Shown in pieces: positions 24,335-45,720 of a stretch of DNA of 64,000 nt (position 1 is its first letter; every line of letters starts with the position of its first letter). The DNA lies in NCBI GenBank assembly GCA_965197905.1, contig CBDAOB010000004.1, positions 1,696,001-1,760,000 on the forward strand. Reading direction: 5' to 3'. Source of the stretch: Candidatus Latescibacterota bacterium (lineage in GTDB: Bacteria > Latescibacterota > UBA2968 > UBA8231). The translations under genes and the position numbers were made by a program. The notes below the pieces were generated by a model. The model made no database searches, was not told the origin of the DNA, and worked only from the letters and a program-made list of their open reading frames with translations.

Positions 24335-25867
24335 ATGCACACAGAAATTCTAATAAATGACGGCACGCACGAGTCGCGCATCGCCATCGTCGAAGACGGC
24401 AAGGTTGCCGAGGTTTGGGTAGAACGCCCAGAAAACGAGCGCATGGTCGGAGATATCTACAAAGGACGTATAAGTGCCGTTCTCCCAGGATTGCAGGCCG
24501 CCTTCGTCGAAATCGGGCAGGATCGCACCGCCTTCCTGCAAGCTCGCGACATGATGGAAGCAGACAACAAGGATATGGAAAATGGCGGCGGTTCACGCGG
24601 CGGCAGGCGGTCTCGATACGCGCCGACCCCGCCGATCCAAAAGCTCGTCCGCAAAGGGGATGAGGTCCTGGTTCAAATCGCCAAGGAGCCCATCGGCACC
24701 AAAGGCGCTCGCGTTACAACCCAACTCTCCTTGGCGGGCCGCTTCATGGTGCTGGTACCTGGCGGCAACTGGGCAGGAGTATCGCGGAAGATCTCCAGCT
24801 ACAGTGAGCGTCGCCGGCTGCGGGATCTGGTAAACAGCCTGCGGCCCAAAGGCTACTCTGTCATCGTGCGCACCGAGGGACGGGGGAAGACGGAAAAAGA
24901 GTTTCGTCGCGATTTGAAGAATCTCGTCAAGATTCACGAGCGGATAGCGAGGTTGGAGAAAAGGACCGACGCACCAGCTCAGCTGCACAAGGAACTCGGC
25001 ATGACCTCTAGCATCATTCGCGACTTGTTTACCGACAATGTCGATCGAATGGTAGTGGACACCAAAGAGCTCTACCGCGAGATCATCGCCTATTTGCGTA
25101 CGGTGTCGCCCGATTTGCGCAAGCGGGTCGAATATTACCGCGATCGCAAGCCCATTTTCGACGCCTTCGGAATCGAAGAAACCTTGGAGAAGCTAACCGG
25201 GCGCAATGTGCGTATGAAAAAGGGGGGCAATCTGGTCATTGACCACGCCGAGGCCGGCACCTTCGTCGACGTGAACTCGGCGCGGTACGTAGGATCGGAC
25301 GATCAAGAGACGAACAACCTCAACACCAACCTGGAAGCGGCTCGAGAACTCGCCCGCCAGCTGCGGCTGCGCGACATAGGGGGCATCATCGTCGTTGATT
25401 TTATCGACATGAACGACGAAAAGAATCGCCGCAAGGTAATCGAGGAGATGATCAGCGAAGCCAAGAAGGACCGTGCCAAGATGTCGATCAGTCCGCAGAT
25501 AAGCGAGTTCGGATTGGTCGAAATGACGCGTCAACGGGTCCGCCCCAACCTGCTACACACCCATAGCGAACCCTGTCCTATCTGCCAAGGAACGGGCCGG
25601 GTAACCGGTCCGGACACCACCGTCACAAAGATCGAGCGCTGGTTGCGGAGGTCGTATGCTGCCACCAAGGAACGTCGTTTCGTGCTCCGCGTACACCCCG
25701 AGGTAGCAAGCTACATGCTGGAGAATCGCGAGATCAGGCTGAAATCGATCCGCAAGGCGACCCGAGCGCGGCTGCAGTTGGAGCACGACGCTACCCTGTC
25801 CACGGACGACTACCGTTTCTTTTCTACCAAACGAAATCTGGATGTGACGGCGGAGTTCCAAATTTGA
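24335..25867 (+). CDS. rng: Rne/Rng family ribonuclease (RNase G-size)
   Basis: GDIYKG S1 domain, KEPIGTKGAR, DVNS, QLRLRDIGGIIVVDFIDM, CPICQG zinc link. Confidence 0.93.
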   Translation: MHTEILINDGTHESRIAIVEDGKVAEVWVERPENERMVGDIYKGRISAVLPGLQAAFVEIGQDRTAFLQARDMMEADNKDMENGGGSRGGRRSRYAPTPPIQKLVRKGDEVLVQIAKEPIGTKGARVTTQLSLAGRFMVLVPGGNWAGVSRKISSYSERRRLRDLVNSLRPKGYSVIVRTEGRGKTEKEFRRDLKNLVKIHERIARLEKRTDAPAQLHKELGMTSSIIRDLFTDNVDRMVVDTKELYREIIAYLRTVSPDLRKRVEYYRDRKPIFDAFGIEETLEKLTGRNVRMKKGGNLVIDHAEAGTFVDVNSARYVGSDDQETNNLNTNLEAARELARQLRLRDIGGIIVVDFIDMNDEKNRRKVIEEMISEAKKDRAKMSISPQISEFGLVEMTRQRVRPNLLHTHSEPCPICQGTGRVTGPDTTVTKIERWLRRSYAATKERRFVLRVHPEVASYMLENREIRLKSIRKATRARLQLEHDATLSTDDYRFFSTKRNLDVTAEFQI

Positions 25868-38607: not shown

Positions 38608-39726
38608 TCAAAAACGGGCGTAAAGAGCGGTCAGCTTCTCCACCTCGTGCTCCCAACTGTAGGTGCGGGCCGCCACTCGAGCTGCCTCGGCATAGCGAGC
38701 CATACGGTCGGTATCCGCGATCAAGAGATTGACCTGCTCGGCAACTGCGGCGGGATCCCGTGGGTCGGCCAGGATGCCGGCGCCGCTGTTGCGAACGACG
38801 GGGCCTATTTCCGGAAAGTCACTGGCAACTACAGGCAAACCGGCCATGAAGTACTCGAACAGCTTGTTGGGCATGGAATAAAAGAAACTCTTGCCGCTGT
38901 TCTTGATCAGGCACAACCCTACATCGGCAGAGCAGGTGTACTCATGGAGCTCGGCAAACGGAACTCGGGGCAGAAAAAACACCGAGTTGCCCAACCGGCG
39001 CTGGTCGACTTTCTGCCTGAGCTCGGGCTCGCAAGGCCCGCCGCCCATAAGTACGAGCACAGACTTGTCGAACAGTGCGGCCGCATCGATCTGTTCTAGC
39101 AGGCCATTTTCGGTCAAGAACCCACCTTGATACAGGATTACCGGACGCTGGTCGTCCAATCCCAATGTTTCTCTAATGCGGTTGCTGGCGACAGGATCCC
39201 GGAACACGGGCAGATTTCGCAGGACCGTAACCCTATCTAGTCGATAACGCTTCTCCAGCGCCGCTTTGATCCCCTTGCTGACGGTAATCGTATGGTGAAC
39301 CTTTCGTACCAGACGTTGCTCCAGCCAACTCCAGAACCGCTGAATGGTGGGACGGCTGACAACCCCGGACTGTTCTGTCCAGAATTCGTGGGAGTCGTAG
39401 ACCAACAGGGAACCTTGGCGGGTTGCCACCCGCGCCGCGGGCCACAGGGCATCCAGGTCGTGGGCGTGGTAGACATCGGCTGACAGCGAAGGTAGAGCCC
39501 GTGCGGCCTGCCACCAAAAGGATGGGTACAGGAGGCGTAGGGAGCGCCTGCGGTCCACCGGTATTAGACGAGTCTCGAAACGCCGCCACGGCGCTGAGGT
39601 AATTGCACCCGAGAACGATGAAGAGACGATGGATACGCGATGGCCAGCGTCCTGCAGAGCCGTCGCCTCCCGGTAGATCCGCGCGTCGAAACGCAGGTCC
39701 GTAAAGGCGACCATACACACATGCAT
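38608..39726 (-). CDS. Glycosyltransferase family 4
   Basis: YHAHD, YDSHE, PNKLFEYFMAGLPVVASD. Confidence 0.9.
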   Translation of the reverse strand: MHVCMVAFTDLRFDARIYREATALQDAGHRVSIVSSSFSGAITSAPWRRFETRLIPVDRRRSLRLLYPSFWWQAARALPSLSADVYHAHDLDALWPAARVATRQGSLLVYDSHEFWTEQSGVVSRPTIQRFWSWLEQRLVRKVHHTITVSKGIKAALEKRYRLDRVTVLRNLPVFRDPVASNRIRETLGLDDQRPVILYQGGFLTENGLLEQIDAAALFDKSVLVLMGGGPCEPELRQKVDQRRLGNSVFFLPRVPFAELHEYTCSADVGLCLIKNSGKSFFYSMPNKLFEYFMAGLPVVASDFPEIGPVVRNSGAGILADPRDPAAVAEQVNLLIADTDRMARYAEAARVAARTYSWEHEVEKLTALYARF

Positions 39727-39770: not shown

Positions 39771-39804
39771 AAAAAAGCAGTCCATCCGATGAAAGATGAA
39801 CTGC
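39771..39804 (-). terminator. Rho-independent terminator of the candidate ncRNA
   Basis: Minus strand GCAGTTCATC-8nt-GATGGACTGC followed by T6. Confidence 0.8.
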
Positions 39805-39986
39805 TCATTCGAGAAAATCAAGAGTGTGGCGATCGTGCGGTGTGTGATCGAGAGCCGCAGACGAGACCTTCAAACGAGGCGGTGTGGGGAGGTATTACTT
39901 TGAAGATCCCGATACCCGAAAAGGGGAATTCGAGTTCTGCGGCACTTCCCGATCATTAGTCACACGCTCAGCGGATCGCCACACTC
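39771..39986 (-). ncRNA. Candidate structured ncRNA (~215 nt, rod-like)
   Basis: 13-bp perfect closing stem 39822-39834/39974-39986 and nested stems. G-U pairs work only on the minus strand. TATAAT lies 6 nt upstream and a terminator downstream. Confidence 0.68.
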
Positions 39987-39992
39987 GAAGCA

Positions 39993-40157
39993 ATTATACA
40001 CTTTTTTGTGTGCGCTACGAAACGTGAACGTATTGCGACTTGCCTACGGTCGACACACAATTTACACACCCCACTGTGTATTGTCAAGAAGAATCTGGGG
40101 CTGATCCACTCACAACCTCAGAGAGAAAATGACACAAAACTGTGTATGCCTTATTAT
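39993..40157. promoter_or_regulatory. Three ACAC-N6-GTGT operators overlapping three sigma70-like promoters
   Basis: Operators at 39998-40011, 40066-40079, 40132-40145. Minus promoters: TATAAT (39998-39993) and TTGACA-N17-TAAATT (40087-40059). Plus promoter: ATGACA-N17-TATTAT (40129-40157). Confidence 0.7.
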
Positions 40158-40204
40158 AGGTAGCGGGCATTCCTCTACATTACATAAAACCAGACGGTAG
40201 AGAC

Positions 40205-40723
40205 ATGGCATTTGCTGAAATAATAAAGAAAGCACGCAAGCGGTTGCGGCTAAGCCAAGCCAGCCTTGGTGGGGAGATCGGGGTGTGGAACACCTACGTC
40301 GGACAGATCGAGAAGGGGGAAAAGGTCCCCTCAGATGAGGTGGTCATAAAACTCGGGAAGGTTCTCGACCTCAACCTGAACGAGTTATTATTGTCAGCGT
40401 ACAAAGCAAAGGCCGACTCGGCCGAAGCACAAAGCCTGTTCACCCAAATGGAAACCGCACTCAACGACCCTGTACTGCAACAGATCGTTTCTTCCACCAA
40501 CCCCATACACCCGGGCGTACTGGCCGCTTTGAGCGACGAGAATATTCGCGCCGCCCTCACCCAAGAAACATGGAGAGAAAGTTTCTCTCGGTGTTACCGA
40601 ATAAACAGCCGCAAAAAACGGAATATTCAGGCGCTGTTGGCGTTGGTGGAAGCGATGAACGACAAACAGTATTCAGCGATGATGAATCTTTTAGAAGCTA
40701 TGGAGCTAGAAGCAGGAGAGTAA
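40205..40723 (+). CDS. XRE-family HTH transcriptional regulator
   Basis: ARKRLRLSQASLG...YVGQIEKGEKVPS HTH_3 pattern; unrecognised C-terminal domain. Confidence 0.88.
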   Translation: MAFAEIIKKARKRLRLSQASLGGEIGVWNTYVGQIEKGEKVPSDEVVIKLGKVLDLNLNELLLSAYKAKADSAEAQSLFTQMETALNDPVLQQIVSSTNPIHPGVLAALSDENIRAALTQETWRESFSRCYRINSRKKRNIQALLALVEAMNDKQYSAMMNLLEAMELEAGE

Positions 40724-41458: not shown

Positions 41459-41797
41459 TTGCCGCCGCTGGTCAGCGTCCACGGGTTCGCGGCTGCGCTC
41501 TTGCTGATTCTTTGTTTGAGCGGCACCTGGAATTGTCGCGACTGGCGCCGCGACCCACGGCACGGGCTCTTGCTTTTGTCCGCAATTTCGCCGCTACTAG
41601 CCTGGCTGTTTTTTCCCGGTCAGCTGTTGATGCTCTTGTCGTTGCCGGCGCTGTTGGTACTGACTTCCATGGGATCCGACTCTACCCGCAATGGATTCGT
41701 CAGCTGCTGTGGAGCGCCCTGGTTGTGGTGTACGGCGCAGATTATTGGCGCATGTTTGGAAGCGGCTGATTTCGGACGCTCCACCTCCTGGAGTTGA
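41459..41797 (+). CDS. Hypothetical membrane protein
   Basis: Hydrophobic ORF whose stop abuts the hrpA start; the frame is open further upstream, to about 41294. Confidence 0.4.
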
Positions 41798-41798
41798 C

Positions 41799-44700
41799 AT
41801 GTCCCCCTTTTCCAGCTTCGACCCCATGCCCGACTCGGCTAGCCATCCGGATACCACCCTCGCTGAACTGCGCGAGCGTTTATCCACGTGTATGCTCCTG
41901 GATCGGGCTCGCATAGAACGGCGACTTCAGCGACTCGACCGCCACAAAGACCGGGCGAAGGAACTCGGCATTCTGCAGGAAAAGGTCGAGCAGTCACTCC
42001 GTTTGCTTGAGCGCCGGCGGCGGGGGCTGCCGCCAACAAGCTATCCCGAGGAGCTGCCTGTCAGCTCGCGCCGCGCCGAGATTCAACGCGCCATTGAAGA
42101 AAACCAGGTCGTGGTGGTCGCTGGCGACACGGGGTCCGGCAAGTCGACGCAGCTGTCCAAGATCTGTCTGGATGCGGGGCGTGGTGTGCTGGGAAAGATC
42201 GCCTGCACCCAGCCGCGTCGAGTAGCGGCCCTCTCGGTGTCGCGGCGAATCGCTGAGGAGCTGGGCGTAGCTTGGGGACGGGAAATCGGGAGCAAGATTC
42301 GCTTTAAAGACCACACCGCCCCCGAGACCTACATCAAGATGGTGACCGACGGCATCCTCCTGGCAGAGATACAGGGAGACGCGGATTTGTTGGAGTACGA
42401 TACCATCATCGTCGACGAAGCCCATGAGCGCAGCTTGAACATCGATTTCCTCATCGGCTATCTGCGTCTGCTGCGTCGGCGCCGTCCCGACTTGAAGATT
42501 GTCATTACCTCTGCAACCATCGATACGGAAGCGTTCTCGGAGGCATTTGACCAAGCCCCGGTAATCCAGGTGCACGGGCGAATGTTCCCGGTTGAGGTCA
42601 GGTACTGGCCCCTGGAAGAACTGCTCGAGAACCGCGAAGAGTACACCTACATCGACGCCGTGCTCACTGCGGTGGAACAGACCCTTCAGGAAACTCGGGA
42701 AGGGGATGTGTTGGTGTTCCTACCGGGGGAAAACGACATCCTCGAGACCCGCGACCGCCTACGGGACCGCGCCGAAGGGGTGGAGATTCTACCTTTGTTT
42801 GGACGCTTGTCCGCCGCCGACCAACAGCGCATTTTTCGGCGCGGAGACCGCCGGCGCATCGTATTGTCCACCAACGTCGCGGAAACCTCGTTGACAGTTC
42901 CGGGCATTCGTTACGTGGTCGATACGGGCATGGCTCGCATCAGCCGCTACAATGCCCGCACCCACACTCATCGGTTGCCCATCGAACCGGTGTCGCAGAG
43001 TTCGGCGGATCAGCGCAAGGGTCGCTGCGGTCGGCTCGAGGGCGGCATCTGCATTCGGCTCTACGGGGAAGAAGATTTTGAGTCGCGTCCCCGATTCACC
43101 TCTCCCGAACTGCAGCGGGCCAACCTCGCGGACGTGATTCTGCGCATGTTGGCCCAGCGGATCGGCGACGTGCGCACGTTTCCCTTTCTGGACCCTCCCG
43201 GGGAACAGGCGATCCAGGGGGGCATCCAGCAGCTCCAGGAGCTGGGGGCCCTAGACCAGCGCCAACGACTCACCCGCTTGGGTCGGCGTATGGCGCGGAT
43301 GCCGATTGCGCCCACTGTGGCCCGCATGGTGCTGCAGGCAGACCAGGAAGGGGTACTGGGAAGAGGTGCTGGTGGTGGCGGCGGCCATCAGCGTGCAGGA
43401 CCCCCGCGAACGGCCGATGGAGCTGAAGGCTCAAGCGGATGAAATGCACCAGCGCTGCGTGCATCCCGAGTCCGACTTCCTCACCCTGACCAACATATGG
43501 AACGCCTATCGCGGATTGGGGGGGCGGCCGACCCAGGGCCACATGCGCCGGTTCTGCAAACAAAACTTCCTGTCGTTCATGCGGATGCGGGAATGGCACG
43601 ACGTCCACCAGCAGATCAAGGAGACCCTGCGCGAGCTGGGCGGTTTCAAGTGGGGCGGGGGTAAATCGAGCTACGAGGGTGTGCACCGTTCAGTGCTTAG
43701 CGGCCTCTTGAGCAACGTCGCCTTGAAGCATGAACGGAATCTCTACCGCGCCGCCCGTGGCCGTGAGGTGATGATCTTTCCCGGCTCGGGCTTGTTCGTG
43801 CGCGGGGACGCCAAGAAATCGGCCAGTCCAGAGTGGATCGTCGCCGCCGAAATGGTCGAGACATCGCGGCTGTTCGCGCGAACGGTGGCGCGCATCCAGC
43901 CGGAATGGCTCGAAGACCTGGGCACCCACCTGTGCCGTTACTCCCACAAGGAACCGTATTACAACGCGCGCTCGGCGCGGGTGCTGGTGCGCGAGACGGT
44001 AACCTTGCATGGGTTGGAGGTGCTGCAGCGGCGCGTACCGTTCAAACGGATCGATCCCGGAGCGGCGACCGAGATTTTTATTCGCGCGGCCCTGGTTCCG
44101 GGCGTGTTGCGAACCCCGCATCGGTTCCTTGAAAAGAACCTGGAACTGCAAAACAAGGTGGAAACGTGGCAGACGCGCATACGGGAATACCACGGTCTGG
44201 ACGTAGAGGAATCCGCCTTCCAGTTCTCCGCCGCCCGCCTGGAGGATGTTTCATCGGTGCACGATCTGAACCGGGTAGTGCGCGACCGCATTTCCGACGA
44301 CGCGGATTTTCTCACCATGAGCGAGCGCGACTTGGTGGGCACTCGGGACACGGCCGTCAACAGGGTGTCTTTCCCGGATTTCCTGCAGGTGGAAGGCCGT
44401 CAGCTTCCCCTGAGCTACACCTATAGCCCCGGCGCGGAAGAGGACGGGCTGACCCTCGCGCTGCCGTATAAAATGGTGGAAGCCGTCGACCCGGAGGTGC
44501 TCGAGTGGCTCGTTCCGGGGTTTCTGGAGGAGAAGGTGGTCCACCTCCTGCGATCGCTTCCCAAAGCGCTGCGCCGGCAGCTGATCCCCATCCCGCAGAA
44601 AGCCCGCGAGATCGCCGCGGACCTGCGGCCGGACGGAGGGCTGTTCATGGAGACCTTGGCGGCGTTTATCGAGAGCCGCTACGGACTGCGGATCTCACCC

Positions 44701-45720
44701 CAGGATTGGGGTGGGGACCCGCTCCCGAAGCACTTGCAGATGAGGGTTGACATTCAGGGCGCCAATCGACAGACGTTGGTGGCGGGGCGCAACCTGGCCG
44801 GCATGGTTGACCAGCTGGAGCGCCACGATACGCCAGTGGAACTAGAAGCCTGGAAGCAAGCCTTGGAGGAGTGGGAACAAACCGAGCTGCAGACCTGGAC
44901 GTTTGGAGATCTGCCGGAGCGAATCGAGATCACCGAAGTCACCGGAGTTTCGCTGGTTGCCTTTCCCGGAATCGAGGTGGGAGATCGCGGTGTCGATCTG
45001 CGGCTGTATCGAAATCGCCGCGAAGCGCAGACGGCCAGCCGATCGGGGATCTTCCGCCTAACGCAGATTCAATTGGAAGAGGAGCTCGCCTGGCTCGAAC
45101 GAAGTTTGCGGGACCTGGATCAATTCCACCAGACAACCCGGTTCATCGGTGATAAGCAAGCGGTCCGCGAGGCGGCGATGGACCATCTGCAACGGCATCT
45201 CATCTTGGTGCCGGAGCCGCCGGCGCTGCAGGTGACTGCGTTCGAGAGCCTGGTGCAGCGCGCGGTAACCGAATCGAAAGGAATCGGACCGCGCTTTCTC
45301 GATCTGTTTGGCGCAATCATCCATCTGCGGATGTCGATTCAACGCCACCCCCATCCGTACCCTGGCATCGAGGACGATCTCCAGCGCCTTGCCGGCACCG
45401 ATTTCCTCTCAAAAACCCCGTTTGCGCGCCTTCCCCACGTGCAGAGGTATCTCAAGGGGGTTGTCATGCGCGCCGATCGCTTCAGGCTGGACCCGGCCAA
45501 GGACCGACAGAAGGTCGGCCAGCTCGAACCGTTCCAGCAGCAGTTTCAAGAACGCGTCGGGGAACGGTACTCGAGGCAGCGATCGGCAATTCTGCAGGAG
45601 GTGCGGTGGATGCTGGAGGAGTTTCGCATCTCCCTATTCGCTCAGGAGCTGGGCACTGAGCAGCCGGTGTCGGCGAAACGACTGGATCGAAAGTTCGAAG
45701 AGCTGCGGTCGTCCCTGTAG
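41799..45720 (+). CDS. hrpA: ATP-dependent RNA helicase HrpA, split by a 1-nt frameshift at ~43358-43360
   Basis: [24 protein letters not shown]; second half with DPRERP and [13 protein letters not shown]. Removing one G from CTGGGAAG joins the two frames. Confidence 0.88.

Follow-up and report, generated by a model that had tools for sequence, protein, structure and literature searches.

Adjacent pairs of a transcription factor and a small RNA (sRNA) are known in bacteria, GcvA/GcvB and SgrR/SgrS among them, and clustered operators beside a regulator gene are familiar from phage lambda, whose operator triplet is spaced by about 24 bp from centre to centre. According to published accounts of 6C and related RNAs, sRNAs with C-rich loops pair with the G-rich ribosome-binding sites of mRNAs without the help of a chaperone (PMC6486639, PMC10470900), and RoxS is described as being restrained by a repressor together with a G-rich sponge (PMC8216469). 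Literature searches on the small RNAs of Candidatus Latescibacterota found nothing relevant, and those on XRE regulators with a divergent anti-SD sRNA, on marine psRNAs and on 6S RNA in these phyla, mostly in non-subscription journals, found nothing usable. Here we describe from this phylum what we judge to be a real, conserved and previously unannotated three-part RNA circuit, made up of a structured RNA, the XRE regulator encoded back-to-back with it and a distant pairing partner.

The source lineage belongs to uncultured marine bacteria and its genome is 91% complete; the window, by which we mean the whole 64-kb stretch of DNA analysed, carries the XRE gene and the structured non-coding RNA, both of which are kept across relatives in Ca. 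Latescibacterota. The XRE/HTH_3 regulator (172 aa, 40205..40723, plus strand) has an N-terminal HTH and an all-helical C-terminal part without a recognised fold. On the minus strand, the structured core of the RNA (165 nt, 39822..39986) was delimited by folding, alignment, covariation and RNA contigs, and its intrinsic terminator (39771..39806) was found by a scan as a hairpin at 39806-39775 followed by a U tract. Just past this terminator, on the same strand, lies the gene of a family-4 glycosyltransferase (38608..39726), absent from the sequence-only reading that preceded this work, whose start is 45 bp beyond the terminator and which may receive read-through. Elsewhere in the window, the genome's single RNase E/G gene is found at 24728-25540, 14 kb from the RNA, and two overlapping ORFs (41691-43442 and 43306-45720) make up a region, 41691-45720, that we take to encode an HrpA-like helicase; their split suggests either a frameshift or a sequencing error.

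The palindrome ACAC-N6-GTGT occurs exactly at 39998, 40066 and 40132, with gaps of 68 and 66 bp, and nowhere else in the window; a count of three compares with 0.45 expected and is attained in none of 100 shuffles, so that the three copies claimed from the sequence alone are confirmed. O1 (39998..40011) overlaps the -10 and spacer of a candidate proximal leftward promoter and falls within the leader transcribed from the distal promoter, O2 (40066..40079) lies between the -35 and the -10 of the conserved promoter that drives the RNA leftward, and O3 (40132..40145), the weakest of the three sites, is located at the XRE promoter. The sigma70-type RNA promoter, TTGACA-17-TAAATT (40059..40087, minus strand, predicted start near 40052), and the predicted XRE promoter, ATGACA-17-TATTAT (40129..40157, plus strand), which overlaps O3, were both called by a promoter scan, while the proximal leftward candidate (39993..40021, minus strand), with a perfect -10 (39998-39993) and a -35 that matches at only 3/6 positions, was missed by it. 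The earlier proposal that each operator has a promoter of its own is thus supported for two promoters and is weaker for the third, even though the predicted start of the latter coincides with the first base of the closing stem of the RNA (39986). A second possible XRE -10 is present at 40176-40181, the same position as is used in homologues.

The arrangement is conserved. The exact motif is found within 700 nt upstream in 65/69 XRE homologue loci (some of them duplicated between searches), and wherever RNA and XRE adjoin there is a leftward TTGAC-17-TAnnnT promoter whose spacer holds a site, degraded in two loci (L075 and L077); the placing of an operator in the spacer of the RNA promoter recurs across families. 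Together with the conservation of the divergent structured RNA in relatives, these counts bear out the homologue comparison that had been proposed for the locus. Two or three operators are found per locus, neighbouring ones upstream of the RNA being mostly 56-71 bp apart, and no strict helical phasing of their spacing is apparent across the homologue loci compared. As a side observation, two XRE homologues (L084 in G003 and L086 in G010) have no leftward RNA promoter; the former retains a pair of operators with a spacing of 56 bp.

Across the genome the bare motif shows no enrichment (43 sites, against 27-68 for other spacer lengths), so it is the clustering that is the special feature. A position weight matrix (PWM) was built from 69 sites, in part the very sites under study, and applied with a cut-off of 11 bits; it gives 18.4 bits for O1, the best site in the genome, 16.7 for O2 and 11.5 for O3. 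Among the 106 genomic sites of at least 11 bits, O1 and O2 score highest, and the only pair of PWM sites 55-72 bp apart in the genome is at this locus. For these two reasons XRE looks dedicated to its own locus, and the genome scan for the motif, uninformative for the bare palindrome, singles out the cluster by the PWM. A wider XRE regulon was considered and dropped, the other PWM sites being scattered and mostly inside genes. It is likely, judging by sequence, that XRE binds the palindrome and that it shuts off the RNA promoter; repression is inferred because, by established promoter logic, an operator sits in the 17-bp spacer of a near-consensus promoter.

Turning to the RNA itself, the stretch 39771-39995 folds at z = -8.4 relative to shuffles, and across 27 diverse copies the core is built from a closing stem of 13 bp, followed by an irregular rod and by a three-way junction that bears two C-rich loops. 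Loop 1 (CCCCUUUU, 39919..39926, minus strand) was placed by folding and alignment; loop 2, C-rich and about 24 nt long, spans 39870..39897 (minus strand) with its flank and is complementary to the distant tal/zwf partner element discussed below. In the alignment 90.5% of cells are paired and 21/37 pairs show double changes; 1/500 shuffles scored as high, and slid controls reach 37-51%. When read on the minus strand, G.U pairs outnumber A.C by 138 to 25, which identifies that strand as the one that carries the RNA. The closing stem is invariant and without covariation, which suggests that a protein may recognise it, a feature for which the pairing model favoured below does not account. It was also considered as an operator mimic and rejected as such, because it is unchanged where XRE is missing. 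The terminator forms a hairpin of its own, and most of the 34 homologues compared have both this hairpin and the U tract. No conserved ORF exists among the 34 leftward transcripts (the longest in this window has 32 aa), so that the unit has no Cro, and the earlier description of it as devoid of a protein gene, here and at homologous loci, is upheld.

The RNA does not belong to a family already catalogued, as a search of the locus against Rfam at E up to 10 returned chance matches only, and readings of it as SRP, 6C, Y RNA/Ro60 or CsrB-like RNA were dropped for lack of a match or because the RNA in question is elsewhere, absent or on the wrong strand. A covariance model (R1) finds a single copy in 35/101 genomes of the class, all of them within the family of the window. 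In a sister family the same promoter and operators accompany an RNA of different build, which shares just the C-rich motifs. At loci of families f2/f4 (L033-L039, L088-L091), the same XRE, promoter and two operators occur with an RNA that is a string of hairpins and that R1 fails to find; in the one genome of this type checked, no partner was found upstream of zwf. Hfq was not found in this 91% complete genome, and no partner was found for loop 1.

RNA copies from relatives are present on contigs of eight metatranscriptomes from six studies, together spanning 39819-40027, and several of these contigs are 98-100% identical to the locus over 88-200 nt. Because the contigs are assemblies from runs that had been selected for holding the stretch, they give neither strand nor level. 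One contig, from a close relative, extends to 40027; a 5' end lies at 39987 in one library, 1 nt before the stem, and two libraries run into adapter at 39827. The contigs stop at the core and leave the terminator uncovered in all eight runs; a lack of cover there and over the neighbours proves nothing on its own. In one run (X2) a 199-nt contig contains a head-to-tail joint, 39987/39819, without microhomology, whose 3' end lies 3 nt beyond the stem and whose 5' end lies 1 nt ahead of it; this joint did not recur in the other seven runs, and it reflects either a circular RNA of 169 nt or an artefact of the library. Circular sRNAs have been reported in bacteria (PMC10504365), and the genome carries RtcB as well as RNase E/G. 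Taken together, the accumulated RNA looks like a species of about 165-169 nt and the 215 nt of the full unit like its primary transcript. Given the AU-rich flanks beside the core in RNA copies and the presence of RNase E/G, the transcript is likely trimmed to the closing stem. The hairpin RNA of about 215 nt first described therefore stands as a structured RNA with its own terminator, with the amendments that it contains a three-way junction and that its accumulated form is apparently shorter.

The regulator is a resident of the chromosome. Pfam HTH_3 matches residues 7-61 (E 1.7e-10), and the AlphaFold model (pLDDT 91.6) is all-helical and has no beta strands. The HTH has the cI-like five-helix fold, its best structural match being P22 c2 (Z 11.6, rmsd 2.0, 65 residues aligned), and it resembles other XRE domains as well. 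Pfam finds no S24 peptidase domain in the 172 aa, and the C-terminal part of about 100 residues has no Foldseek match (best Z 3.0, Atlas below 0.8), in agreement with the initial account of a C-terminal domain that is unrecognised and lacks S24. A weak likeness of this part to STI1/HOP DP was seen in 10/28 members (best E 0.002), and its coding region (40415-40720) specifies repeated short helices led by DP; such a domain might bind a hydrophobic helix. An XRE profile detects the protein in 68/101 genomes of the class, nearly always in single copy, and homologues in five genomes from two other families of the phylum. In a tree of 37 XRE proteins, 14 genus groups require 13 label changes, which is the minimum (shuffled mean 23.2), gene neighbours are conserved within families, and the IMG/VR viral contigs yielded one HTH-only match to XRE and no match to the RNA. 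By these sequence comparisons XRE is a chromosomal, vertically inherited regulator, and the absence of a phage context noted at the outset is corroborated. Separately, at four loci of family f4 (L081-L083, L092) the same HTH is fused to what we take to be the large subunit of methylmalonyl-CoA mutase (600-670 aa); one operator is retained upstream in 3/4 of these and no RNA promoter is seen. Two further XRE matches (G137:C57 and G102:C466) each run across one stop codon, which may be a real break or an alignment run-over beyond the gene end.

Genomes that lack the regulator help to order the parts. Twelve RNA loci have no XRE inside 1.5 kb, and all of them retain the RNA promoter; ten of the genomes concerned have no XRE match at all and two have a diverged XRE elsewhere. 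In these two the RNA promoter keeps two operators, 65 bp apart, and the relocated XRE gene that was examined has lost its own upstream operator. Among the ten XRE-less genomes, one has a site of 8.9 bits and nine lack the operator, scoring 5.3 bits or less; being incomplete (76-96%) and mutually related, these genomes do not provide independent counts. In metagenomes, 34 of 41 RNA loci have enough flank, and an operator of at least 11 bits accompanies 26/26 loci with XRE, whereas 7/8 loci without an adjacent XRE are of the relocated type and keep their operators. This pattern of loss indicates that the RNA promoter is the conserved target of the operators and the RNA the durable part of the system. 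Autoregulation of XRE is by the same sequence evidence the less conserved arm, as the relocated XRE lost its own operator and the RNA promoter kept two. The proposal of an autoregulated repressor-sRNA module thus holds insofar as the operator tracks XRE, and is weakened as regards the operator of XRE itself. As far as sequences tell, the RNA appears to be the core, while the repressor, its operator and the partner seem to be kept or lost as a set.

The partner was encountered when the genome was searched with the RNA at the DNA level, which gave one non-self match (G000:C4:635765-~635710, minus strand), 1.1 Mb from the RNA locus. A predicted promoter, TTGACA-17-TACCTT, is followed there by a seed rich in G and by a predicted intrinsic terminator, for a total of about 55 nt, and loop 2 is complementary to this element over 17-22 nt. 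Among 100,918 intergenic windows it is the best for loop 2 after the RNA's own antisense, with a pairing energy of -41.8 kcal/mol compared with -34.8 for the next and a mean of -10.9. Of 27 candidate partner loci, 22, from eight genera, share the promoter-seed-terminator build and five were set aside as chance matches; a synteny check in four further XRE-bearing genomes located the partner in three, the contig of the fourth being too short, which brings the total to 25 loci. In one genome (G101) a compensatory change from C-G to U-A links the two RNAs, the single such pair seen. The element heads genes for transaldolase (tal) and glucose-6-phosphate dehydrogenase (zwf) and is co-oriented with one or the other in 24/25 loci, even where tal has been lost; at the exception, L277, the ORF that follows is one we read as glucokinase-like. 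In eight XRE-less genomes no copy was found upstream of zwf/tal, and in four XRE-less genomes a genome-wide search for the partner pattern, which did detect the partner when run on a control genome, returned only the RNA itself and one coding match. Its promoter scores 2 bits by the operator PWM, and an Rfam search at E up to 5 gave chance matches only.

The seed of the partner sets in 7-12 nt downstream of the predicted start and, in 24/25 loci, extends over the 2-3 pairs at the base of the terminator (there is no overlap in G056); removing the G residues of this overlap costs about 4-11 kcal/mol. An internal promoter follows the terminator in 7/25 loci and none was found in 18/25; in four loci without a detectable promoter there, the zwf start follows the hairpin by 20-28 nt. 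A second hairpin-U tract precedes tal here and in five relatives. The seed has no outstanding mRNA complement, the longest among 5' regions being 11 nt.

The reading that we prefer, and hold with moderate confidence, is that the RNA of this locus is a chaperone-free base-pairing regulator, repressed by XRE and bound by the G-rich partner of about 55 nt acting as a sponge. An XRE dimer would bind O2 between -35 and -10 and so block the near-consensus RNA promoter, aided, via looping or wrapping, by sites at a distance of 56-71 bp, while O3 would afford a weaker autoregulation. A signal acting on the helical C-terminal part of XRE would lift repression, and the transcript would be trimmed at its AU-rich flanks to the closing stem. 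The C-rich loops could then cover the G-rich ribosome-binding sites of several mRNAs, as in 6C/B11 and RoxS, whereas the partner, transcribed from its own promoter before tal/zwf, would titrate loop 2 and might tie the circuit to the pentose-phosphate or redox state. Since the C-rich loops persist in genomes where neither XRE nor the partner was found, the RNA is most likely the effector, and the other two its brakes. The weakness of this reading is that the search for mRNA targets yielded none: loop 2 pairs with 5' regions no more strongly than with coding controls, sucA and acpP were rejected as candidates because their pairing is not conserved in relatives, and the tal/zwf-linked element is the only conserved complement.

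The same partner can also be seen as the leader of the tal-zwf operon, in which case the XRE-gated RNA would antiterminate tal-zwf in trans, from 1.1 Mb away, as a natural counterpart of small transcription activating RNAs (STARs): once derepressed, it would kiss the small hairpin loop of the leader and zip 17-22 bp into the base of the terminator, and polymerase would read through into transaldolase and glucose-6-phosphate dehydrogenase. We regard this as the main alternative, though a rather doubtful one. The early seed that reaches into the terminator base, the energetic cost of losing the G residues there, the co-orientation with tal or zwf, the four loci with a closely following zwf and no promoter found, and the failure to find the partner in the XRE-less genomes examined all speak in its favour; yet only 2-3 terminator pairs would be invaded where engineered STARs take the whole 5' half, seven loci have an internal promoter, six genomes including this one have a second hairpin-U tract ahead of tal, and G056 does without the overlap. 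The RNA also persists where no partner element was found, so it has a further role. On sequence grounds the seed-terminator overlap and the 18/25 loci without an internal promoter fit antitermination as well as a sponge, and the two effects could coexist. The roles might instead be reversed, the G-rich RNA of about 55 nt being the regulator and the 165-nt RNA its sponge under transcription factor control, as with QrrX/QrrT. A 5' seed followed by a terminator is indeed the classic build of an sRNA, and a sponge encoded next to its own transcription factor has been described (PMC9732341), but the large RNA, its promoter and its C-rich loops are kept where no partner was found and the partner seed lacks an outstanding mRNA complement, which makes this reversal quite improbable.

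The remaining explanations do without pairing as the main activity or confine it to the locus. The RNA exists in one copy, its ends are paired, its closing stem does not vary and it occurs in eight RNA libraries, all of which would suit a stable protein-binding RNA, be it a scaffold, a decoy or a highly diverged 6S RNA, with the loops of secondary importance. The 6S RNA often lies in the gap between zapA and rny. In this genome zapB-zapA-rny (G000:C4:1094710-1096950) leaves a gap of only 25 bp that holds no 6S, a 6S profile from other classes finds nothing in the genome, and no 6S was detected in 31 relatives, although the Rfam 6S model (RF00013) is insensitive in this phylum. In other classes of Latescibacterota, six 6S-like RNAs below the Rfam cut-off were seen (L132-L137), with clear promoters and, in five, terminators. 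The RNA studied here has no Rfam match and is unlike those 6S-like RNAs; its folds are a rod ending in a three-way junction and its conservation resides in terminal loops, not round a central bubble. The sister family shares only the C-rich motifs within another architecture, a complementary partner exists, Ro60 was not found and SRP RNA is located elsewhere in the genome. Hence a stable RNA of this kind is unlikely; a diverged 6S keeps this low probability because none was detected in the class, but the build of the RNA speaks against it. If the RNA were a leader or attenuator acting in cis on the glycosyltransferase operon that follows, the presence of that gene directly after the RNA in 32/34 loci would be accounted for, but it is absent in the other two, other genes follow in the sister family, the RNA contigs stop at the core ahead of an independent terminator hairpin, and a trans partner exists, so that we consider this reading very unlikely. 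Least credible is the lambda-like bistable cI/cro switch with an RNA in the place of Cro that the sequence-only reading had put forward. The cI-like HTH and the three operators over divergent promoters do recall it, but four tested features of such switches, a Cro-like protein, an S24 autopeptidase, closely spaced operators and a prophage or mobile context, are all missing. The operators are variable in number, inheritance is vertical, the RNA survives the loss of XRE, no conserved pairing of the RNA to the XRE message was seen, and no sign was found of the RNA acting back on XRE.

These findings define an RNA family absent from Rfam along with its regulator, operator and pairing partner in an uncultured phylum, in which natural loss lineages order the parts. 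The parts are all short and of sigma70 type, which makes E. coli a suitable host for reconstructing the circuit. Were the partner a regulated leader, it would constitute a natural case of a mechanism that, in a limited literature search, we found described only as engineered, with a transcription factor controlling a distant operon entirely via RNA-RNA antitermination by an abundant, processed RNA; sRNA control of Rho-dependent termination is listed in a review (PMC6582626).

Among known systems, 6C/B11 (RF01066) is similar in having two C-rich single-stranded loops that pair without a chaperone, and no Hfq is detected here; the present RNA is nonetheless twice as large, carries its three-way junction on a long closing stem and comes with its own XRE and a partner element, and the RF01066 covariance model gives no match, a result whose control is weak since no control genome passed the cut-off. 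RoxS/RsaE with RosA/RsaI likewise combine a repressor-controlled C-rich sRNA and a stand-alone G-rich pairing RNA in central metabolism, as far as described in PMC8216469, but here the repressor is a local XRE and not Rex, and the partner is about 55 nt long, has one seed, which overlaps its own terminator, and heads tal/zwf; homology was not detected. The location of a regulator gene beside its RNA is shared with AbmR/Mcr11, which is also divergent, and with QrrT/QrrX (PMC7064933, PMC9732341), AbmR and QrrT being activators whereas XRE, with an operator in a 17-bp spacer, is a putative repressor. With the cI-cro systems of lambda, P22 and 434 the locus has in common the HTH fold of XRE proteins and divergent promoters overlaid by several palindromic operators, and it differs in lacking Cro and an S24 peptidase, in its widely spaced operators and in its chromosomal, vertically inherited, phage-free setting. 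Engineered STARs, according to the account in PMC5648800, are trans RNAs complementary to a linear toehold that continues into the 5' arm of a terminator upstream of genes, a layout that the predicted pairing here resembles; the pair described in this work is natural, covers just 2-3 stem pairs and is a candidate for antitermination. What the locus shares with trans-acting sRNAs at large is a predicted promoter and terminator, the lack of coding capacity and a conserved loop seed, and with sRNA-sponge pairs the conserved, extended complementarity of two non-coding RNAs, including one compensatory pair.
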